A stretch of 11,959 nucleotides of DNA from a virus. Taxonomy: Duplodnaviria; Heunggongvirae; Uroviricota; Caudoviricetes. The notes beneath the pieces are model-generated. The model searched no databases. It was not told where the DNA came from and worked only from the letters and a program-made list of their open reading frames with translations. The stretch lies in the IMG/VR virus record IMGVR_UViG_648276647_000018. One strand, 5' to 3'. This document shows positions 1 to 11,959 of the stretch, in pieces (the first letter of the stretch is position 1; the number at the start of each line of letters is the position of its first letter). Made by a program: the position numbers and the translations under genes.

Positions 1-1212
1 GTGGCAAGAACGACACGCCCCCTGACCAACACAGAAGTTCTGCGCGCTAAAGCGTTAGAAAAGGATCTAACGTTACATGATGGCGATGGCCTTTTTCTGC
101 TCGTTAAAACGAACAGTAAGAAGTTGTGGCGTTTCCGTTATCAACGTCCAGCAACAAAACAGCGGACAATGATGGGGCTTGGTGCTTTCCCCGCCCTTTC
201 ACTTGCTGATGCTCGACGGTTAAGAGCGGATTACCTTGCTTTGTTGGCTAATGGTATAGACCCACAAGTTCAAGCTGAATTTATCGAAGAACAACAACAG
301 ATAGCTCTAGACAGTATTTTTTCGACTGTTGCGACCAACTGGTTCCAGATAAAAAGCAAAAGCGTTACCCCTGATTACGCTAAAGATATATGGCGCTCAC
401 TGGAAAAAGACGTATTCCCTGCCATCGGGGAGATTCCTGTCCAGCAAATAAAAGCCCGAACACTAGTTGAAGCCCTTGAGCCAATCAAAGCTCGTGGAGC
501 ACTCGAGACAGTGCGCCGACTTGTACAGCGCATTAACGAGATAATGATTTATGCCGTAAACACTGGTCTGATTGATGCCAATCCAGCATCAGGTGTTGGG
601 ATGGCCTTTGAAAAGCCCAGAAAACAAAACATGCCGACGCTGAGGCCAGAAGAATTACCAAAGCTGATGCGTTCTTTGTTCATGTCAAATCTGTCTGTTC
701 CGACTCGCTGTCTCATTGAATGGCAGCTTCTGACTCTAGTGCGTCCTGCTGAAGCTTCCGGTGCTCGATGGGCAGAGATCGATCTCGATGCAAAGCTCTG
801 GATGATTCCAGCCGAACGGATGAAGGCCAAACGAGAGCACATAGTTCCTTTATCCACGCAGGCATTAGAAATTCTAGAAGTGATGCAACCTATTAGCGCA
901 CATCGTGAGCATGTTTTCCCAAGCAGAAATGACCCTAAACAACCAATGAATAGCCAGACTGCGAATGCCGCGCTTAAGCGCATTGGTTATGGTGGGAAGC
1001 TTGTTGCTCATGGATTACGTTCTATAGCAAGTACAGCACTAAATGAAGCTGGTTTTAATCCGGACGTAATTGAAGCGGCACTTGCTCACAGTGATAAAAA
1101 TGAAGTTCGAAGAGCATACAATCGTTCAACTTACCTTGAACAACGTATAGACTTGATGAATTGGTGGGGTGAATTTGTGCACAACCGCCACCGCCTCATG
1201 CAAGCGATTTAA
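1..1212 (+). CDS. int: P4-type tyrosine integrase. The N-terminus is at or just beyond the window edge (GTG at position 1).
   Basis: The ORF is 403 aa. The N-terminal region (LTNTEV..., DGDGLFLLVKTNSKKLWRFRYQRP) is typical of P4/CP4-57-like integrases. The C-terminus carries HGLRS, LAHS and RRAYNRSTY, the catalytic R-H-R-Y signature of tyrosine recombinases. Confidence 0.9.
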   Translation: MARTTRPLTNTEVLRAKALEKDLTLHDGDGLFLLVKTNSKKLWRFRYQRPATKQRTMMGLGAFPALSLADARRLRADYLALLANGIDPQVQAEFIEEQQQIALDSIFSTVATNWFQIKSKSVTPDYAKDIWRSLEKDVFPAIGEIPVQQIKARTLVEALEPIKARGALETVRRLVQRINEIMIYAVNTGLIDANPASGVGMAFEKPRKQNMPTLRPEELPKLMRSLFMSNLSVPTRCLIEWQLLTLVRPAEASGARWAEIDLDAKLWMIPAERMKAKREHIVPLSTQALEILEVMQPISAHREHVFPSRNDPKQPMNSQTANAALKRIGYGGKLVAHGLRSIASTALNEAGFNPDVIEAALAHSDKNEVRRAYNRSTYLEQRIDLMNWWGEFVHNRHRLMQAI

Positions 1213-1239
1213 TAAGATTGCACAGCAAAGGAGTCTTAA

Positions 1240-2598
1240 ATGCCAAATAACTACCATCAATACATCGAAGACGTTAGTGATGATATAAAGACATGTCTTG
1301 AAGGAATGGGATGCCAACCCATACTTTTTGTTGGATCGGGATTAACCAAGAGATATCTTTCTGGCCCAAACTGGGAAGAACTTCTTCAGCAACTTGCTAA
1401 TGAATGTCCTAACATCGATAAAAGATTTGCCTATTATAAACAGAAATACCCCGAGTTGATTGATATCGGCAGTGTATTTTCTGATTCTTATAACGAGTGG
1501 GCATGGGGTGATGGAGAGAAAGAATTTCCAGCAGAGTTATTTGATGCAGGCAATGAGCCAAGTATTTATTTTAAATACAAAGTATCTAGTATTTTCAACT
1601 CATTGTTACAAGAAAAAGAAATCGTAAACAACGGTGAAATTGAACTTCTGAGAAAGATTCACCCTCATTCAATCATCACAACAAATTACGACAAATTACT
1701 TGAATCGATATATCCTGAGTTTACCCCCATTATAGGCCAAAAAATCCTTTACGCTAATCACGGTAGCATTGGTGAAATACTTAAAATACATGGTTGCTGC
1801 TCCACTCCTGAAAGCATAATAATAAACCGCGATGACTACGATGACTTCATAAAGAAGAAGAAATATTTAAGCGCAAAACTGCTTACTTTCTTTGCTGAAC
1901 ACCCTCTTCTATTTATAGGTTACAGCGCAGAAGACTCGAACATAAAAAACATACTATCTGATATTGATGAACTACTTTCAGAAAATGGAGATGTCATTCC
2001 AAATATATACATTTTAGAATGGACGAGCAAACAAAATGAAAGTGAATACCCACGCCGTGAACGGCTGATTCAAGTATCTGCAAACAAAAGCATTAGAATA
2101 AAAAGTATAGTAGCAAATGACTTCTCTTGGGTATTTTCAGCGTTTGGCGCGAACAGAGCACTTGATAACATAAATCCCAAATTATTGAGGGCACTTTTAG
2201 CTCGCACTTACGATCTCGTCAGAACTGATATACCTCGCAATCCTGTCCAAGTTGATTACCGAGTTTTATCAAGCATTAGCGAGTCAGAAGGTGAATTAGC
2301 GAAATTATATGGTATCGCCACATCGTCAGATGGTATGGCATTTAATGCCAGTTATCCTTTTACTTTAACCACGCTAGGGCAATCACTTGGTTTCAAAGGC
2401 TGGCATGATGCGAACAAACTATTAGAAGTAGTTAAAAACATCACGAACGTAGACATCAAGACATTCGATAACAAATACCACTATGCAATAATGAACGGTG
2501 ATGAGATTCAGTCCCATAGATATTCAAACTATCTTCGAGAACTCCTCGAAAAGGTTAGGGATGGAGAGGAGTTTGAGTTAGGAATAAAGGCTCCATAA
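1240..2598 (+). CDS. SIR2-like (sirtuin-fold, SIR2_2-type) protein, 452 aa, with a C-terminal domain of unknown function; candidate single-gene anti-phage effector.
   Basis: Strong SD (AAGGAG) 6 nt upstream of the ATG. Motifs: PILFVGSGLTKRYL (Rossmann Gly-rich loop, aa 27-40), IITTNYDKLLE (putative catalytic Asn149, codon 1684-1686), ILKIHGC (putative catalytic His184, codon 1789-1791) and LLFIGYSAEDSNI. The gene is clearly more AT-rich than the GC-rich P4 backbone. It lies between int and cos. Confidence 0.85.
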   Translation: MPNNYHQYIEDVSDDIKTCLEGMGCQPILFVGSGLTKRYLSGPNWEELLQQLANECPNIDKRFAYYKQKYPELIDIGSVFSDSYNEWAWGDGEKEFPAELFDAGNEPSIYFKYKVSSIFNSLLQEKEIVNNGEIELLRKIHPHSIITTNYDKLLESIYPEFTPIIGQKILYANHGSIGEILKIHGCCSTPESIIINRDDYDDFIKKKKYLSAKLLTFFAEHPLLFIGYSAEDSNIKNILSDIDELLSENGDVIPNIYILEWTSKQNESEYPRRERLIQVSANKSIRIKSIVANDFSWVFSAFGANRALDNINPKLLRALLARTYDLVRTDIPRNPVQVDYRVLSSISESEGELAKLYGIATSSDGMAFNASYPFTLTTLGQSLGFKGWHDANKLLEVVKNITNVDIKTFDNKYHYAIMNGDEIQSHRYSNYLRELLEKVRDGEEFELGIKAP

Positions 2599-2626
2599 TT
2601 ATTCATATAGCCTTACTACTTTTTAT

Positions 2627-2650
2627 GGCCGCTTTAATAGCGGCTTTTTC
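2627..2650 (+). terminator. Rho-independent terminator downstream of the SIR2-like gene.
   Basis: Stem ggccgct (2627-2633), loop ttaat, stem agcggc (2639-2644), then TTTTT (2645-2649). Confidence 0.5.
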
Positions 2651-2785
2651 ACAGCATTATTCATGCTTCTAGCACGATATGATGAACCGCAATAATCATA
2701 GCTAACAGGATTAATTTAAAGCATTACTCCTCGACTGAAGCGTGCTGTCATGCGAAAAAAATTTAAACTACCACGTTAGCGCGCA

Positions 2786-2804
2786 GTGCTTTCCCCGCCT
2801 CGCC
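2786..2804. other. cos site: 19-nt P2/P4 cohesive-end sequence.
   Basis: gtgctttccccgcctcgcc is the exact reverse complement of the P2/P4 cohesive end GGCGAGGCGGGGAAAGCAC as I recall it. Confidence 0.7.
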
Positions 2805-2906
2805 CGCACGCTTTGCGGGGCGGTTTTAATGCAGTTGCACTGACACGCTCAGACCGCGCCGGGAATGGCGCGGTCTGCAGAAAATGAGGCAGGGAAACGC
2901 ATGCAA

Positions 2907-2939
2907 AGCCATGCACCTTATCGATGCATGGCTTTTTTC
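2907..2939. terminator. Hairpin with T-run between cos and the psu stop; possible terminator, strand uncertain.
   Basis: Stem agccatgca (2907-2915) and tgcatggct (2925-2933), followed by TTTTTT (2934-2939) on the plus strand. A second inverted repeat gaccgcgcc/ggcgcggtc lies at 2852-2875. Confidence 0.4.
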
Positions 2940-2968
2940 AGTAAAAACAGGCGGATTTTCGGGAAATT

Positions 2969-3541
2969 TTACACAGACTGACGTGATGCCAGTTGCGCAC
3001 TTTTACGCGAAAAAATCATGTTCTGCGCAGGGGTGAATTTTTCACGGCTGTCGTCCACCGAAGCCGCGTCAGGCCTGAATCCGATGGTCGTTAAAATGTC
3101 GCTATCCTGTGCGGAATAATTAATTTTTTCCCCCTTCGCAAGCCAGGACAGAAGGGCTTCACGCAGGGCATCTGTGGCACGCTGTATGGCACAGTTTCGG
3201 GCAATGGCCGTCAGCTCACTGTAGCCCATCAGCTCCGGTGCCAGTGCCGCCGCCAGTGCTGTGCCGTGCTGCTGCATAAAATCATTCAGCCGGTCGCGGA
3301 TGCTGATGTGCTGAACGGCTTCATGCGAACGAATATAACGACCGGCGGCCTGATTCACCTGCCATTTTCTGACTTCGATAATATTGCGTAATTCGTCCAG
3401 GCGACTGACGTTTCTGCCTTCTCCTGACAGAAGCCGCAGGTATTCCTGTTCGGCCGCTGCCAGCTCATTTTTGCGTTGCAGCCATGCTGCTTTGTTATTC
3501 TGACAGGTGTCAAAGGCCTGCTGTAAGGCTGTGCTTTCCAT
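2969..3541 (-). CDS. psu: Psu, polarity suppression / capsid decoration protein.
   Basis: 190 aa. The translation MESTALQQAFDTCQNNKAAWLQRKNELAAAEQEYLRLL... matches P4 Psu in sequence and length as I recall it. It is the last gene of the sid-delta-psu operon, read toward cos. Confidence 0.9.
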   Translation of the reverse strand: MESTALQQAFDTCQNNKAAWLQRKNELAAAEQEYLRLLSGEGRNVSRLDELRNIIEVRKWQVNQAAGRYIRSHEAVQHISIRDRLNDFMQQHGTALAAALAPELMGYSELTAIARNCAIQRATDALREALLSWLAKGEKINYSAQDSDILTTIGFRPDAASVDDSREKFTPAQNMIFSRKSAQLASRQSV

Positions 3542-3614
3542 CGTTATCTCTTTCTCATCATGCTGAAGAATAAAAATACGGTGTGTGGCGACGGCCGGTG
3601 TTAACCGGCAGCCC

Positions 3615-4115
3615 TCATTCCAGACGCAGCGAATATGATTGTGTTTTTAACCGTACTGGCGGCAGTTCCTGTTTTTCATGCAGGCGTTCTGCCAGTTCGT
3701 CCGGCGTGACCGGGCGGACAATGAAGCGGGTGATGGTCTGAAGCGTTTTAAACACCAGACCACAGCCCGGATCCGTGCACACATAAAAACGCTCGGTGAC
3801 TTCCTGAGACAGACCCCGCGATGTTCTTGACAGCGCAAGGCCTTTACATCTCCGACAACAATATCCGGTAACAAGCATTCTTTTCGGGCGCTTCATGCTG
3901 CCGGAGGCTGACGTCAGTGAATCGCGGTATCTCTGTTTGCCTGAAATGTATTCCATTCCTGAATCTTTACAGTCAGAGAAAAAGCTTTCACTCGCTTCAA
4001 ATGTCGCAGAGCAATAAATATTCCGGCACTGTGCAATCATTATCTTGGTGCCATCGTCCATGAAATGTGCGCGACGGGTGTGAGCAACATGTCCACACGA
4101 CGGGCAGTAAATCAT
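3615..4115 (-). CDS. delta: Delta, Ogr/Delta-family zinc-finger late-gene transactivator.
   Basis: 166 aa starting at MIYCPSCGHVAHTRRAHFMDDGTKIMIAQCRNIYCSATFEASESFF, with a second Ogr-like module (YVCTDPGCGLVFKT). The start is the ATG at 4113-4115 with an AGGA SD. The longer 185-aa ORF in the track is an in-frame upstream extension. Confidence 0.85.
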   Translation of the reverse strand: MIYCPSCGHVAHTRRAHFMDDGTKIMIAQCRNIYCSATFEASESFFSDCKDSGMEYISGKQRYRDSLTSASGSMKRPKRMLVTGYCCRRCKGLALSRTSRGLSQEVTERFYVCTDPGCGLVFKTLQTITRFIVRPVTPDELAERLHEKQELPPVRLKTQSYSLRLE

Positions 4116-4846
4116 GACAGCAGTCCTCTGGCCTTCAGCTCTGCTCCCTGCTGGTCTATTTTGTCCTGCCACACCTTGCGCTGTGCCGGTGTGCCTGCCA
4201 CCTCATAATCCATGTGCGGGAGTGTTGCCGCTGACAGTCCGGTCAGCCGGAGAACCGGCTCGCCGGTGAGGCTGATTTGCATCTGTTTAATTTTCTGTTC
4301 CAGCGATGATTTCACCTGCTGCATGACAGCCTTTTCCGGTGCGACGTAGCCCTGATGGCCGGTGGTGTTGGCGAGCGGATTTTCCTGTACCAGAATGCTC
4401 AGATGCATTGCCCGGACAAGCGCCTCACAGGTTTCATTCAGGGCGTGTTCCAGCTCATGCTCTGCATACAGACTCAGAAGGTGATGATGTGCCTTCCGGT
4501 AGGCGGTGGCCGTGCTGTCACACGCCCCTTTCAGGCGTTCACGTTCGAAATTCAGCACCACGGCCAGATTGTCATATTCCTGTACCAGCTCCCGGCGTGC
4601 CACGCGCTCAATGTGGCGCTGTTTCAGCTCGTCGCTCAGGACACCACCGGCTGCACGAAAGGCCGTGCGCCAGTCGTCAGCGTCATTTCCGTCGGCCTGC
4701 GTCAGCGCATTTTTTTCCTGCTCTGCCCGTTCAATGGCCGTGACGGTCTCATCCATCAGGCGGGCGTTCTCAAGATGAGCGGCTCTGGCCTTTTCCAGTT
4801 GTGCCAGTGCGGGTTGCAGATATTCAGGGATGGTGTTGTCAGACAT
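4112..4846 (-). CDS. sid: Sid, capsid size-determination (external scaffold) protein.
   Basis: 244 aa starting at MSDNTIPEYLQPALAQLEKARAAHLENARL with a GAGGAG SD upstream. The stop at 4112-4114 overlaps the delta ATG (ATGA overlap). The 266-aa ORF in the track is an upstream extension. Confidence 0.85.
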   Translation of the reverse strand: MSDNTIPEYLQPALAQLEKARAAHLENARLMDETVTAIERAEQEKNALTQADGNDADDWRTAFRAAGGVLSDELKQRHIERVARRELVQEYDNLAVVLNFERERLKGACDSTATAYRKAHHHLLSLYAEHELEHALNETCEALVRAMHLSILVQENPLANTTGHQGYVAPEKAVMQQVKSSLEQKIKQMQISLTGEPVLRLTGLSAATLPHMDYEVAGTPAQRKVWQDKIDQQGAELKARGLLS

Positions 4847-4918
4847 TTTCCGGCTCCTCGTCACTTCAGGTTGAGAAAATTGTGACGTACACCGGACAGC
4901 AACACGACGCATTGCAGA

Positions 4919-4936
4919 TGTGCCAGCCCTGACACA
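4919..4936 (-). promoter_or_regulatory. Putative Delta/Ogr activator site (TGT-N12-ACA) of the late promoter Psid.
   Basis: tgtgccagccctgacaca is centred about 82 nt upstream of the sid ATG. A second TGT-N12-ACA lies at 4881-4898. Delta/Ogr/Cox-activated P2/P4 late promoters carry this dyad near -55. Confidence 0.4.
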
Positions 4937-5015
4937 GGAGACTCATCCTCAGACCGGCAAGCCAGGAAAAGGTCGCAGGAAAAACCGGCTTACTGTTTGT
5001 TTTTTTATATTTTAC

Positions 5016-5120
5016 TGTTCACCTCTGTTCACCATAAGAAAAAAGATAAGTAATACAGTAAGTTAAAGGGTGAACAATCGCAGTAATGACTGTTCACCGT
5101 CTGTTCACCACTGTTCACCC
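5016..5120. repeat. Replication origin (ori): six copies of the type I iteron TGTTCACC.
   Basis: Direct copies at 5016-5023, 5026-5033, 5091-5098, 5103-5110 and 5113-5120, plus one inverted copy (ggtgaaca) at 5069-5076. The region is AT-rich. It lies about 4.8 kb from crr, as in P4. Confidence 0.7.
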
Positions 5121-5169
5121 GTTGATGGGCTTTTTGTGCTGTTTATTACTTTTTATTTTTATTAATTCA

Positions 5170-5215
5170 CTGAAATAAATAAGAAAAAACAATTTGTATT
5201 TCACTATAATTTTTT
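5170..5215 (+). promoter_or_regulatory. Possible constitutive early promoter (PLE-like) for the vis-to-alpha operon.
   Basis: Perfect TATAAT at 5205-5210 in an AT-rich tract. I could not pick out a good -35 at 17-bp spacing. Confidence 0.25.
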
Positions 5216-5397
5216 CCAGCTCCTTCCAGAGCGTTTTAAAGCTATCTGGCGCTGATGTACAAAAAATGCACAGCCATTGTAAGGCTGCCGGAACAAATCC
5301 CCCCTGTTGCGTCTGCTGAAAATATTCACAAAATAAAGCGCTACCCGAAGCCGGACGGACTTATCCGGTGCTGTATGGACATTAACGAGGTAGCCCG

Positions 5398-5664
5398 ATG
5401 CAAGCTGTTTTTTCTTCCCCGTCTCCCGCCCCTGTTACGCCACTGATGCCGCTGCCGGACATCACGCAGGAGCGTTTTTTACGTCTGCCGGAAGTGATGC
5501 ACCTGTGCGGCCTGTCACGCTCGACCATCTATGAACTCATCCGTAAGGGGGAATTTCCGCCGCAGGTGAGTCTTGGCGGTAAAAATGTGGCCTGGCTGCA
5601 CTCTGAAGTCACCGCATGGATGGCCGGGCGCATTGCCGGACGCAAACGGGGGTACGACGCATGA
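5398..5664 (+). CDS. vis: AlpA/Vis-family helix-turn-helix regulator (excision and late-gene control).
   Basis: 88 aa with a GAGG SD 7 nt upstream. The core [48 protein letters not shown] is the classic AlpA/Vis HTH. Confidence 0.8.
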
Positions 5665-5756
5665 TGATGCCCGCTCTGCAAAAAGTCCCTTTTTCTGGCT
5701 TGCCTTTTTCCGGCATTTGCGGATATAGTTTTTCCGCTGCCGCAAAATCGGCAGCC

Positions 5757-6047
5757 GGGCGTAGGAACCCGTGTAACTCGAAGGCGACATATGACGCGCC
5801 ATGCGTCTTTTTTTGTGTCGCAATCAACGCCACAGAGCGCCAGATTATGGTGTGGCGTGTGGTTTGCCGTGCAGGTATGATCCTGTTCGCAATCGCATGT
5901 TATGCCACTGAGTCAATGGTAGCTCAGGCGGGGCAGCCTCCGGGCTGGCCGGTATTCTTCGAGGCCGGTATTCCTACCCCCGTCTGGGCTATCGCCATCG
6001 AGCGTAGGAACTCCGGCGATAGCAGTTATTTGCTACTCGAAGGAGAC
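5757..6047 (+). promoter_or_regulatory. CI-RNA-type immunity region: seqA-like and seqC-like direct repeats flanking a complementary seqB-like element.
   Basis: gcgtaggaac...ctcgaagg occurs at 5759-5784 and again at 6002-6043. Between them, cttcgag (5957-5963) and ttcctac (5971-5977) are the antiparallel complements of both halves. A 9-bp inverted repeat gctatcgcc/ggcgatagc lies at 5978-6023. Confidence 0.45.
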
Positions 6048-6053
6048 TGCCTT

Positions 6054-6251
6054 ATGGCTACAACCCTTACCCCTTCACACCCTGAATTTGTCTTTGTGTT
6101 TGCGGCTGTCCGTCGCGCAGACCGTCATCCCCGTATCTGCATGCTTCGCACCGTCGCCGGTGATGAACGCAGCGCCCGCCGTTCCCTTGTCCGTGACTAT
6201 GTGCTCTCCCTTGCTGCCCGTCTGCCGGTGGTGGAGGTGTCCCGTGCGTAA
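6054..6251 (+). CDS. Hypothetical small early protein (65 aa).
   Basis: ATG with an AGGAGA SD 7 nt upstream. It is the 3' part of the long 5616-6251 reading frame, whose upstream portion overlaps vis and the immunity repeats and is probably non-coding. Confidence 0.45.
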
Positions 6252-6531
6252 TAAAAAAGCCCCTCAGACCGTCTCAGCACGTCATGACGCCCGTGAACAC
6301 CTCAGCATTGAGGCTTACCATAAGCTCAACCGCGCCAGCGCCGTATCCCAGTTTGTTGGGGGTGATTTGATTCACCGTGAACTCTCCGGCCTGCATCAGC
6401 TCTACATTCCGCATATTTTCAGCTACCTGAATGAAGATATTGATTTTGTGCTGAATGAGCTGAAAGCCAAAGGCCTGTGCCGCGATTTTCTCGCCCAGCA
6501 GAAAGACCGGGGAGACAGGACGCATGTTTGA
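6244..6531 (+). CDS. Hypothetical early protein (95 aa, GTG start); possibly epsilon-like by size and position.
   Basis: GTG preceded by GGAGGT at 5-nt spacing. The start overlaps the stop of the preceding ORF by 8 nt. The epsilon attribution is from uncertain memory of the P4 map. Confidence 0.5.
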
Positions 6532-6979
6532 TTTTCCCCAGCCCGGTGAGATTTACCGTTCTGCCGGTTTTCCCGATGTGGCCGTGGTCGGCATTCTGGA
6601 AGACGGTATTCCGTGGGAAATGCCGTACCGCTGCCCGGACATTGTCTGGAATCCGTACCGCCGTAAATTCAGTATCCTTGTGCGTATCCTCGCTGACGGG
6701 CGCACCACAGACATCCCGCTGGGGCGTTTTCTGCGGGAATTTACCTGTGACCGTCCTGACCTGTTCAGACGCAGCCCCGTAAACCGGCATGCGGTACTGA
6801 AAGAAATGGCCGGAGACCCGGAATTACAGAAATGGCGGGAGAAATATCTGGATATTTACCCGCAGGACCCTGTTCCGGTCAGCCGGGCGGCACCGGTGGC
6901 GCGGGAATGGCGGGAAATTCCCCGCACGGAGCCTGACCCGGAAATCACCCCGGATAACAGTTACCGCAATTATCTGTAA
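6524..6979 (+). CDS. Hypothetical protein (151 aa); size and position fit P4 orf151.
   Basis: The ATG overlaps the upstream stop (ATGTTTGA). Coding-like composition, same strand as alpha. Confidence 0.7.
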   Translation: MFDFPQPGEIYRSAGFPDVAVVGILEDGIPWEMPYRCPDIVWNPYRRKFSILVRILADGRTTDIPLGRFLREFTCDRPDLFRRSPVNRHAVLKEMAGDPELQKWREKYLDIYPQDPVPVSRAAPVAREWREIPRTEPDPEITPDNSYRNYL

Positions 6980-7114
6980 TTAAAAAACGACACCCGAAAA
7001 ATTAAATGTGCGTATTCGCGCAGGGATACGCACGTCTTCAGGAGACGCAGATATGCCTTATCAGTTAATGCAACCGGCACGGAATGCAGTCATCTGTCAC
7101 AGGGAGGAAAGCAA

Positions 7115-7435
7115 ATGACCCCCCCCTTACCGCCCGTCTTACGCGCAGCCCTTTACCGTCGCGCTGTCGCCTGTGCCTGGCTGACCGTGTGCGAACGTCA
7201 GCACCGCTACCCGCATCTCACCCTTGAATCACTGGAGGCTGCCATCGCCGCTGAGCTGGAAGGCTTTTATCTGCGCCAGCACGGTGAGGAAAAAGGGCGT
7301 CAGATAGCCTGTGCCCTGCTGGAAGATTTAATGGAATCCGGCCCCCTGAAGGCCGCGCCGTCGCTGTCCTTTCTCGGGCTGGTTGTGATGGATGAACTCT
7401 GTGCCCGTCACATAAAAGCGCCGGTACTGCACTGA
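7115..7435 (+). CDS. Hypothetical protein (106 aa) immediately upstream of alpha.
   Basis: GGGAGGAA SD 5 nt upstream of the ATG. It ends 14 nt before the alpha start. Confidence 0.7.
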
Positions 7436-7449
7436 AGGAGAACAACACC

Positions 7450-9783
7450 ATGAAAATGAACGTAACCGCCACCGTCAGCCATGCGCTCGGCCACTGGCCG
7501 CGTATTCTCCCGGCGCTGGGGATTCAGGTGCTGAAAAACCGTCATCAGCCCTGTCCGGTCTGTGGCGGGAGTGACCGCTTCCGTTTTGATGACAGGGAGG
7601 GGCGCGGCACCTGGTACTGCAATCAGTGTGGTGCCGGTGACGGCCTGAAACTGGTTGAAAAGGTGTTTGGTGTTTCCCCGTCCGATGCGGCCGCAAAGGT
7701 GGCTGCCGTGACCGGCAGCCTGCCCCCGGCTGACCCGGCAGTGACGGCTGCCGCCGGTGCTGAAACAGACGCTGCCCGGAAGAACGCCGCCGCACTGGCA
7801 CAAACCCTGATGGCGAAAACCCGTCCCGGAACCGGTAACGCCTACCTGACCCGCAAGGGCTTTCCCGGCCGGGAATGCCGGATGCTGACCGGCACACACA
7901 GAGCCGGTGGCGTGAGCTGGCGCGCCGGTGACCTTGTGGTGCCACTGTATGACGACAGCGGCGAACTGGTTAACCTTCAGTTAATCAGTGCTGACGGCCG
8001 TAAGCGCACCCTGAAAGGCGGACAGGTCAGGGGCACCTGTCACACCCTTGAAGGACAGAATCAGGCAGGAAAACGTCTGTGGATAGCGGAGGGATACGCG
8101 ACCGCACTTACCGTGCATCACCTGACCGGTGAAACGGTGATGGTGGCGCTTTCTTCCGTGAACCTCCTTTCTCTGGCCAGCCTTGCCCGACAGAAGTATC
8201 CGGCCTGTCAGATTGTCCTTGCCGCAGACCGTGACCTCAGCGGTGACGGCCAGACAAAAGCCGCCGCAGCCGCAGATGCGTGTGAGGGCGTTGTTGCCCT
8301 GCCGCCGGTCTTCGGTGACTGGAATGATGCCTTCACGCAGTACGGCGGGGAGGCCACCCGTAAGGCCATTTACGATGCCATCCGGCCACCGGCTGAAAGC
8401 CCGTTCGACACCATGAGCGAAGCGGAGTTTTCCGCCATGAGTACCAGCGAAAAGGCCATGCGTATCTATGAGCATTACGGCGAGGCGCTCGCGGTCGATG
8501 CCAACGGCCAGCTTCTGTCCCGTTATGAAAATGGTGTCTGGAAGGTGCTGCCACCACAGGACTTTGCCCGGGATGTGGCCGGGCTGTTTCAGCGTCTGCG
8601 CGCGCCGTTCTCCTCCGGGAAGGTGGCCTCCGTGGTGGACACCCTGAAGCTGATTATTCCGCAGCAGGAAGCCCCCTCCCGCCGCCTGATTGGCTTTCGT
8701 AACGGCGTGCTCGACACGCAGAACGGCACGTTCCACCCGCACAGTCCGTCACACTGGATGCGTACCCTGTGCGATGTGGATTTCACCCCGCCGGTGGAAG
8801 GGGAAACGCTGGAAACCCACGCCCCCGCGTTCTGGCGCTGGCTTGACCGTGCCGCCGGTGGCCGTGCGGAAAAACGCGACGTGATTCTGGCCGCACTGTT
8901 TATGGTGCTGGCAAACCGCTACGACTGGCAGCTCTTTCTGGAGGTGACCGGTCCCGGCGGCAGCGGCAAAAGTATCATGGCCGAAATAGCCACCCTGCTG
9001 GCCGGGGAGGATAACGCCACGTCGGCCACCATCGAGACGCTGGAATCCCCGCGTGAACGTGCCGCGTTAACTGGCTTCTCACTGATACGCCTGCCGGACC
9101 AGGAAAAATGGAGCGGCGACGGTGCCGGACTCAAGGCCATCACCGGCGGCGACGCGGTGTCCGTTGACCCGAAATACCGGGATGCGTACTCCACGCATAT
9201 CCCGGCGGTGATTCTGGCCGTGAACAATAACCCGATGCGCTTCACCGACCGCAGCGGCGGCGTGTCACGCCGGCGGGTGATTATTCACTTCCCGGAACAG
9301 ATAGCCCCGCAGGAGCGCGACCCGCAGCTTAAGGACAAAATCACCCGCGAGCTGGCGGTCATCGTGCGTCACCTGATGCAGAAGTTCAGCGACCCGATGC
9401 TCGCCCGGTCACTGCTTCAGTCCCAGCAGAACTCAGACGAGGCACTGAACATCAAACGGGATGCCGACCCGACGTTTGATTTTATCGGCTATCTGGAAAC
9501 CCTGCCGCAGACCAGCGGCATGTATATGGGGAACGCCAGTATCATCCCGCGTAATTACCGTAAATACCTCTATCACGCCTATCTGGCCTACATGGAGGCA
9601 AACGGCTACCGGAATGTACTCAGTCTGAAAATGTTCGGGCTGGGGCTGCCGGTGATGCTGAAGGAATACGGACTGAATTACGAGAAGCGCCATACCAAAC
9701 AGGGGATACAGACCAACCTGACGCTGAAAGAGGAAAGCTACGGCGACTGGCTGCCAAAATGTGACGACCCTGCAACAACCTGA
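7450..9783 (+). CDS. alpha: Alpha: bifunctional DNA primase / helicase with C-terminal iteron-binding domain.
   Basis: 777 aa with an AAGGAGA SD. N-terminal zinc ribbon (CPVCGGSDRFRFDD...WYCNQCG). TOPRIM-like motifs (IAEGYATALTV, LAADRD). Walker A GPGGSGKS (nt 8951-8974). The length matches P4 alpha. Confidence 0.95.
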   Translation: MKMNVTATVSHALGHWPRILPALGIQVLKNRHQPCPVCGGSDRFRFDDREGRGTWYCNQCGAGDGLKLVEKVFGVSPSDAAAKVAAVTGSLPPADPAVTAAAGAETDAARKNAAALAQTLMAKTRPGTGNAYLTRKGFPGRECRMLTGTHRAGGVSWRAGDLVVPLYDDSGELVNLQLISADGRKRTLKGGQVRGTCHTLEGQNQAGKRLWIAEGYATALTVHHLTGETVMVALSSVNLLSLASLARQKYPACQIVLAADRDLSGDGQTKAAAAADACEGVVALPPVFGDWNDAFTQYGGEATRKAIYDAIRPPAESPFDTMSEAEFSAMSTSEKAMRIYEHYGEALAVDANGQLLSRYENGVWKVLPPQDFARDVAGLFQRLRAPFSSGKVASVVDTLKLIIPQQEAPSRRLIGFRNGVLDTQNGTFHPHSPSHWMRTLCDVDFTPPVEGETLETHAPAFWRWLDRAAGGRAEKRDVILAALFMVLANRYDWQLFLEVTGPGGSGKSIMAEIATLLAGEDNATSATIETLESPRERAALTGFSLIRLPDQEKWSGDGAGLKAITGGDAVSVDPKYRDAYSTHIPAVILAVNNNPMRFTDRSGGVSRRRVIIHFPEQIAPQERDPQLKDKITRELAVIVRHLMQKFSDPMLARSLLQSQQNSDEALNIKRDADPTFDFIGYLETLPQTSGMYMGNASIIPRNYRKYLYHAYLAYMEANGYRNVLSLKMFGLGLPVMLKEYGLNYEKRHTKQGIQTNLTLKEESYGDWLPKCDDPATT

Positions 9784-9799
9784 CCATCATGACTCATCT

Positions 9800-9825
9800 G
9801 ACCGGCATCTGCCGGTCTTTTTTTA
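9800..9825 (+). terminator. Rho-independent terminator after alpha.
   Basis: Stem gaccggc (9800-9806), loop atct, stem gccggtc (9811-9817), then TTTTTTT. Confidence 0.55.
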
Positions 9826-9840
9826 TCCCTGAATTCCCCG

Positions 9841-10140
9841 AAGGTGAACAATCCACTGTTCACCCTTCACCGTATATTCACCCGTTATCACACTGAAATT
9901 AAAAGAGAAAAATGAAAGGTGAACAGTGTGAACAATCAAATCAAAAAAACTTTTTTTCTTCCGGTGTGATTTCAGCACGGGAAATTAATCCCCTGCACAA
10001 GTCACACCGGCAGAATGCCGGAGGTGAAGAATCGAATGTTCACCCTTCACCCATTATTCACCATCTATCACTCTGAAATAAAAGGAGAAAACAGAAAGGT
10101 GAACAGTGTGAACAGTTCTTTCGAAAAAAATTTTTTTTCC
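9841..10140. repeat. crr (cis replication region): two direct repeats of about 120 bp at a 180-bp period, each with TGTTCACC-type iterons.
   Basis: Repeat 1 (9841-9960) and repeat 2 (10021-10140) align almost base for base, with a 60-bp spacer between them. Each holds ggtgaaca / tgttcacc copies and ends in an A/T run. Confidence 0.75.
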
Positions 10141-10203
10141 TGTACGATATAGCATCAATCCAAGTAAAAATGCGCTTTCATTTCACATTAACTTCCAGCC
10201 ATT

Positions 10204-10296
10204 GGTATACGATTAGGTATACGCACAAAAAATGAATTAAACAAAATCATTAAAAATCAAAGCAATACAATATTTATTCAAACTCCGCCAGCCCAC
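10204..10296 (+). other. Candidate right attachment site (attR): tandem ggtatacg arm-type repeats followed by a degenerate copy of the ssrA (tmRNA) 3' end.
   Basis: ggtatacg occurs at 10204-10211 and 10217-10224. ttcaaactccgccagcccacca (about 10275-10296) resembles the ssrA 3' end (ttcaactcccgccagctccacca, from memory) with three indels. The left repeat is not in the window, so this cannot be confirmed. Confidence 0.3.
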
Positions 10297-10428
10297 CAAA
10301 TAATGATTGGACGGTGTAAGGACTACACCAACAAAAACAGGAAGTTATAAGTCTCAGCAGGACACCGACCAGACGGTGAGGAGACAAAAAAGGATACGCA
10401 ACGGAGTCGCGACTCCCTATGACATTAA

Positions 10429-10452
10429 AGCCCGCTGATGCGGGCTTTTTTA
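10429..10452 (+). terminator. Rho-independent terminator in the flank upstream of csiD.
   Basis: Stem aagcccgc, loop tgat, stem gcgggctt, then TTTTTT. A perfect palindrome ggagtcgcgactcc sits just upstream at 10403-10416. Confidence 0.5.
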
Positions 10453-10882
10453 TTGGTCCTGACCCGCCCTGAATAGAATTCATCCAATTACAGCCCAGAC
10501 ATATACAGTATCCCTCAGCTCAGTATCAGCTTCTCGACAAATGGTCACTGTTATTTACCCGTTGCCAGAAAGAGAATAATTTGCCCCCATAGCCAGCCTT
10601 CCCGGAATCTGTATATTCATTAATATTGTTATCGATTCCATCAAGTAACATAGGTTGGATGCGATTGATCTTACTCACATTAGTCGACACGGAACTCAGT
10701 AAGTCGAACTCTGGAAAAGCAGTTTAAATAGCATTTAAACAAATGCCACCAGTTCGAAAAAGAGTATAAGCACACTTAATATATTGTTTTAATTATTCAT
10801 TTCCTTTCAACCCAATTCTTATCCCTCACATTACTTGTTATTGATTTGTTGTTTTTGATCACAATAAGAAAACAATATGTAA

Positions 10883-11959
<1,077 letters not shown>

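Follow-up and report, generated by a model that had tools for sequence, protein, structure and literature searches.

The window, by which we mean the whole stretch of 11,959 nt that was analysed, is an entire prophage of the P4 type, inserted at the ssrA site of E. coli. In a sister genome, E. coli 2022H047, which is 99.2-99.7% identical over window 1-10295, the gene order is ssrA, integrase, SIR2-family protein, psu, delta, sid, immunity genes, alpha and crr, and therefore the window was read as a complete prophage beginning at the integrase (1-1212). The host gene glaH is found at 10982-11959. From the cos end to the last base of crr (window 2805-10137) the sequence is collinear with P4 at 97.1% identity, and P4 was the sole match in the phage collection for a 600-nt query around the crr repeats. 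The main features are as follows.

5016-5119, no strand: ori iteron cluster, six exact TGTTCACC, corresponding one to one to the 'ori type 1 repeats' of P4; cis partner of crr
7450-9783, + strand: alpha, a 777-aa primase-helicase-origin binding protein, intact; trans-acting partner of crr
9800-9826, + strand: rho-independent terminator of alpha (hairpin 9800-9817 and a T run), between alpha and crr
9838-10137, + strand: crr as a whole (repeat 1, spacer, repeat 2), ortholog of P4 X51522 4291-4590
9838-9957, + strand: crr unit 1, 120 nt, 97.5% identity to P4 unit 1 and 81.7% to unit 2 of the window
9958-10017, no strand: crr spacer, 60 nt, 78.3% identity to P4, not conserved
10018-10137, + strand: crr unit 2, 120 nt, 98.3% identity to P4 unit 2; P4 homology stops at its last base

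The preliminary description had correctly placed the repeats downstream of alpha, since the alpha ORF ends at 9783, the terminator hairpin follows at 9800-9817 and crr starts 55 nt past the alpha stop codon. The interval it gave, 9841-10140, had the right length (300 nt) but a register 3 nt too far to the right. The repeat search of the window returned a single family of direct repeats with 2 copies, the 120-nt units listed above, spaced 180 nt from start to start in a 120 + 60 + 120 nt layout, in agreement with the two repeats of about 120 bp at 180-bp periodicity that had been described. These units have the same base at 98 of 120 positions (81.7%), as against a best 120-nt self-match of at most 55/120 in 20 shuffles of window 9000-11000 at any offset. 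To call the repeats near-identical was nevertheless an overstatement, as 81.7% is also the value found within P4 itself.

The exact octamer TGTTCACC occurs 11 times in the window against an expectation of 0.42, a number reached in 0 of 200 shuffles, with 5 copies in crr, 6 at ori (5016-5119) and none elsewhere. On allowing up to 1 mismatch, 5 sites were found in each crr unit, 3 on the - strand and 2 on the + strand, which agrees with the P4 annotation and with the earlier statement that each repeat contains octamers in both orientations. The sites, along with a partial sixth site and the terminal tracts, are listed below.

9843-9850, - strand: unit 1 site a, TGTTCACC, exact
9857-9864, + strand: unit 1 site b, TGTTCACC, exact
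9865-9871, + strand: unit 1 site x, CTTCACC, partial sixth site, conserved, absent from the P4 annotation
9875-9882, + strand: unit 1 site c, TATTCACC, 1 mismatch
9918-9925, - strand: unit 1 site d, TGTTCACC, exact
9927-9934, - strand: unit 1 site e, TGTTCACA, 1 mismatch
9943-9957, no strand: unit 1 terminal A7-C-T7 tract, conserved across the family (1.51 bits/position)
10023-10030, - strand: unit 2 site a, TCTTCACC, 1 mismatch
10037-10044, + strand: unit 2 site b, TGTTCACC, exact
10045-10051, + strand: unit 2 site x, CTTCACC
10055-10062, + strand: unit 2 site c, TATTCACC, 1 mismatch
10098-10105, - strand: unit 2 site d, TGTTCACC, exact
10107-10114, - strand: unit 2 site e, TGTTCACA, 1 mismatch
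10123-10137, no strand: unit 2 terminal A/T tract, AAAAAAATTTTTTTT

In both units a 35-nt segment of 26-29% GC separates the + sites (b, x and c) from the - sites (d and e), and the tails beyond this segment and the - sites have a GC content of 13-17%. The ori iterons, 4719 nt away from crr, likewise flank a segment of 20% GC that is comparable to the AT-rich segment of the crr unit. It may be noted that the iterons of P4-like satellites come in variants, TGTTCACC versus TGTTCACT.

Correspondence with P4 and the end of the replication module

The definition of crr in P4 dates from the 1980s, and its published name is "cis replication region". The unit pairing between the window and P4 is 1 with 1 and 2 with 2. 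In P4 (X51522 4291-4590 / X05623) crr also lies after the alpha terminator and before att, with the same 120 + 60 + 120 nt layout, five type I octamers per unit in like orientations and the same 81.7% identity between its own two repeats. The partners are the same too, namely alpha and an ori with six octamers, and in P4 the type 1 repeats fall within the annotated "origin of DNA replication". Residues 671-770 of alpha, its C-terminal origin-binding domain, are 100% identical to PDB 1KA8, the crystallised P4 alpha origin-binding domain. The identification as crr is thus upheld by the identity of the units to the annotated P4 crr (97.5% and 98.3%), the intact alpha and the one-to-one mapping of the ori octamers. 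By its sequence, crr of the window is a known element, annotated in the P4 reference, and an ordinary near-identical copy of it in a common E. coli prophage; "replication enhancer", the term used earlier, may serve as a fair functional shorthand, with the role in the prophage taken over from P4 by orthology. Also, RefSeq P4 (NC_001609 4096-4431, about window 9998-10152) carries P4p05, a GeneMark 'hypothetical protein' that overlaps attP and crr unit 2. This prediction is unlikely to be a real gene, because the window, with its different downstream sequence, leaves only 45 aa of the frame.

The window differs from P4 in its spacer, which is 21.7% diverged and has a strong hairpin that P4 is without, and in its downstream flank, which is another integration module with an ssrA-type att and an integrase (1-1212) of only 35% identity to P4 Int. 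The homology to P4 ends exactly after crr unit 2 and the integration module begins right there (10138-10300), which places the mosaic breakpoint at the end of crr. Within this module we found the following.

10201-10223: arm-type sequence CATTGGTATACGATTAGGTATAC, 23 nt, holding GGTATACG twice
about 10279-10300: attR core, a degenerate copy of the ssrA 3′ end

The arm-type sequence is found again at the opposite end of the prophage, in the interval from ssrA to int (seen in L002, a twin of the window). The attR core was located by visual inspection and a BLAST comparison with the ssrA gene of the sister genome, and lies about 140 nt from the end of crr. The order is therefore alpha end (9783), terminator, crr (from 9838), att arm and attR core. 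From the att arm, the attR core and the 35% integrase it follows that crr is part of the ori-alpha replication module rather than of the integration module; it travels with alpha and not with the integrase. The crr marks the right-hand limit of the replication module and is a useful annotation point.

The spacer was compared with the neutral rate given by third codon positions of alpha, and its divergence of 21.7% from P4 stands against 3.6% at those positions (P about 2e-7), which suggests that the spacer of the window may be a replaced patch. It can form an imperfect hairpin with 27-nt arms (DNA MFE -15.1 kcal/mol, z about -5), as against -3.9 kcal/mol and a z of 0.6 for the P4 spacer. This strong hairpin is present only in the window and in L002, and the spacers of other lineages, 46-61 nt long, are unrelated and show no significant structure. 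A functional hairpin formed by the spacer inverted repeat was considered and rejected on these grounds, namely strength in one lineage and unrelated spacers of variable length elsewhere. The spacer is hence not a conserved functional part, because its hairpin is lineage-specific and the spacers elsewhere are unrelated.

Conservation and variants of the crr unit

Homologs of crr were found in 1153 of 5426 complete E. coli genomes, and in 1034 of the 1153 the match spans 80% or more of the query; among the E. coli genomes listed, the RefSeq feature at crr is 'none' or a flanking gene only. About 3,400 P4-like satellites have been catalogued (PMC13586616). For a broader view we used a sample of 80 alpha loci from Enterobacterales, with alpha identities of 57-99%. 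A 120-nt unit profile detected a crr unit in 69 of the 80 loci, spread over many Enterobacterales genera, and no unit in about 11. All profile matches are on the alpha strand and the near-full-length ones are all downstream of alpha; three short partial matches lie upstream of alpha, at the expected ori position. Many alpha loci have one unit, or have units displaced 0.7-2.3 kb from alpha. Therefore, the exact two-unit layout with 180-bp spacing is not obligatory, since loci with no detectable unit, with one unit and with displaced units exist. Most loci with an alpha identity of at least 81% show enrichment of the core GTGAACA both past the downstream end of alpha and, at the ori position, in a cluster 1.7-2.6 kb upstream. 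Counts of the exact octamer under-detect crr in distant alpha loci, for which the 7-mer and the profile are needed. Four loci with an alpha 98-99% identical to that of this E. coli satellite (L003, L004, L005 and L039) are filed under MAGs of Clostridiales, Ferruginibacter, 'bacterium' and Ruminococcus; these are most likely mis-binned Enterobacteriaceae contigs.

Information content was calculated over 95 unique units, which were aligned with a profile built from P4-type units, the same units included, so the values below are to be read with that overlap.

Unit positions 6-13, 20-27, 38-45, 81-88 and 90-97: the five annotated sites, 1.33-1.67 bits/position
Unit positions 28-34: sixth, unannotated site CTTCACC, 1.47 bits/position
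Unit positions 106-120: terminal A7-N-T7 tract, 1.51 bits/position
Unit positions 1-5: first five bases, CCGGA, 1.54 bits/position
Between the sites of the crr unit: 0.5-0.96 bits/position

The CTTCACC site directly abuts site b and, like the A7-N-T7 tract, matches the annotated octamers in its degree of conservation. Conservation also extends to a TGAAAT motif (unit positions 57-62), which is missing from the P4 annotation. Between P4 and the window alone, the repeats are 2.1% diverged against 3.6% at the third codon positions of alpha (P = 0.13); the constraint on crr is therefore visible only in the broad comparison of 95 units, because the P4-window divergence of the repeats is not significantly below neutral.

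On comparing the two units position by position, unit 1 of nearly all two-unit loci of other genera matches unit 1 of the window at 10-15 of 22 diagnostic positions and unit 2 at only 3-6 of 22, and the reverse holds for their unit 2. This unit-specific matching implies that the duplication predates these lineages and that the copies were not homogenised, and the two crr units are, on this pattern, old paralogs. Two loci depart from it: in Edwardsiella hoshinae (L052, 5386-5828) the units are 96% self-identical with a spacing of 330 nt, and in Serratia (L079, 5570-5845) they are 88% self-identical with a spacing of 165 nt, indicating independent recent duplication or conversion. From these two cases it follows that the two-unit state arose more than once. 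Unit spacings of 166-168 and 176-181 nt gave no clean fit to a single helical phase.

The unit number also varies within the lineage of the window. Locus L003 (4115-4234) has a single hybrid unit, of repeat-1 type for about 19 nt and of repeat-2 type thereafter, and is the product of recombination of one repeat with the other, which removed exactly 180 bp. Two further E. coli matches (H63 and H64) resemble this single-unit crr. One-unit variants are consistent with the sufficiency of one repeat that is reported for P4. In some other loci the crr units are split by 1-2 kb with ORFs in between (L028, 5385-6900; L029, 5385-7684; L035, 5383-7323), and therefore cargo can lie inside crr. The cargo of the split loci includes a 495-aa protein with no Pfam or PADLOC match, a DUF1883 protein with a small membrane protein, and a 440-aa multi-pass membrane-like protein. 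A cargo hotspot between primase and att has been published, and its relation to the crr units is not described there.

Role of crr and competing explanations

Taking together the anatomy of the locus, its orthology to P4, the presence and identity of its partners and the conservation of its sites, all of which were observed directly, we consider it highly probable that crr of this P4-type satellite prophage is a non-coding two-unit cassette that is bound by the prophage's own alpha and acts with ori. Across the family crr co-occurs and is co-oriented with alpha, its motif is shared with ori only, and the sites are the most conserved positions. The requirement in cis, the binding by alpha, the looping and the sufficiency of one repeat would carry over from the P4 literature: P4 crr is reportedly required in cis and bound by alpha, and ori and crr are said to be brought together by looping, with one repeat said to suffice. 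In the proposed mechanism each unit would offer five or six sites for the winged-helix origin-binding domain of alpha around an AT-rich core, and would end in the A7-N-T7 tract. After excision or infection, alpha would occupy the TGTTCACC-type octamers at ori (5016-5119) and at crr alike, and alpha-alpha contacts would bridge the two clusters, 4.7 kb apart, into a loop. Without the crr cluster in cis, alpha would not open ori or load itself as helicase-primase; with it, host DNA polymerase III could then start theta replication at ori. The presence of crr together with an intact ori and alpha suggests that the prophage may be replication-competent.

It may be asked whether crr is instead mainly a negative copy-number or incompatibility locus, which titrates alpha or handcuffs ori (with Cnr) in the manner of P1 incA or of the iteron clusters that control F and R6K. 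An iteron cluster outside the origin with the same sites as ori is in line with this, and a unit number of 1, 2 or 3 in nature, with collapse to one unit, fits a dosage-type element. However, deleting P4 crr reportedly abolishes replication rather than raising copy number, and we find this explanation distinctly unlikely. The P4 record also annotates crr as the cis required region for replication, and a recent preprint calls it essential for P4 DNA replication; negative copy control as the sole function conflicts with that status, but it is possible as an added one, as the roles are not mutually exclusive. Iteron plasmids also offer a parallel. There, the R6K gamma-ori enhancer (bound by pi protein), P1 incA and F incC are auxiliary iteron clusters, and such clusters are initiator-binding repeats away from the initiation site, have the same iteron as the origin and act in cis via initiator-mediated DNA looping. 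They differ in having Rep iterons of about 20 bp, as opposed to the 8-bp P4 sites for a winged-helix domain fused to a primase-helicase, and incA and incC are negative regulators, whereas crr is described as positively required. To our knowledge there is no sequence or protein homology between these clusters and crr. Each crr unit could also be a small secondary origin made of inverted iterons flanking an AT-rich core, given that + sites face - sites across the 35-nt segment of 26-29% GC much as at the 20% GC segment of ori. This has very little probability in our view, as P4 replication is reported to start at ori, which is still needed when crr is present, and the unit profile matches ori weakly or not at all, so that crr cannot be regarded as a mere copy of it.

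The closeness of crr to the attR core (about 140 nt) would suit repeats that form part of the integration module as integrase/Xis arm-type sites of attP/attR. Yet crr is about 98% the same as in P4 where the integrase is 35% identical and the att site is different (ssrA), separate arm-type repeats exist outside crr in both P4 and the window (10201-10223), and the crr octamers are found again at ori, which is 4.7 kb away from any att site; such a role is scarcely credible. The lowest standing, close to nil, goes to a CRISPR array, a small gene or an sRNA locus. A direct repeat with a unique middle segment is common to crr and CRISPR arrays, and P4p05 has been predicted over unit 2. But the crr repeats differ in holding octamers of the initiator-binding type, and the preliminary description was right in setting a CRISPR array aside, as crr has no more than two units, each 120 nt long, with a single non-conserved spacer of 60 nt, and the genes of the element (int, SIR2, psu, delta, sid, immunity genes and alpha) include no cas gene. 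A CRISPR array as such was rejected, since it needs at least three near-identical repeats of about 23-50 nt, with unique spacers of like length and as a rule cas genes alongside, and crr has two of 120 nt that are 82% identical. As regards a gene or an sRNA, no credible ORF covers crr (the longest has 54 aa, and the P4p05 frame is cut short as described), the Rfam scan matched no RNA family in or beside crr, and the tRNA/tmRNA scan returned nothing there.

Returning to the cassette bound by alpha, the refinements beyond the known crr are modest and consist of the extra motifs, the old paralogy, the free spacer and the copy-number and split variants. For P4 cosmid and phasmid engineering, the parts of crr that are likely dispensable become clearer (sites versus free spacer, one-unit variants, cargo between units). 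A more speculative extension, which we put forward tentatively and hold to be rather doubtful, is that crr is a modular cassette in which two anciently diverged units are kept distinct, the extra motifs serve a host factor or a bend for ori-crr looping, and the units act as points of recombination and of cargo entry, in view of the split loci with unknown ORFs between their units. If the last were true, replication control and cargo acquisition would be physically coupled in this satellite family.

Other features of the prophage

Just outside attR, window 10277-10457 is 84.9% similar to the 'tmRNA pseudogene | attP' of Escherichia phage LLS; neither ARAGORN nor Rfam found a tmRNA in this stretch, which is closed by a strong terminator-like hairpin (10427-10448). 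Towards the other end of the prophage, a 452-aa SIR2-like ORF (1240-2598, + strand; Pfam SIR2_2, E 4e-27; PADLOC candidate PDC-S25, E 2e-84) stands in place of the P4 genes gop-beta-cII. It sits in the int-psu interval, which is a known defence hotspot of P4-like satellites. The sole stretch in which the window differs from L002 is 5815-5914, about 100 nt here versus about 64 nt there, in the immunity region just upstream of the C4 antisense RNA (Rfam match 5912-5999), and it may be an immunity-specificity variant.
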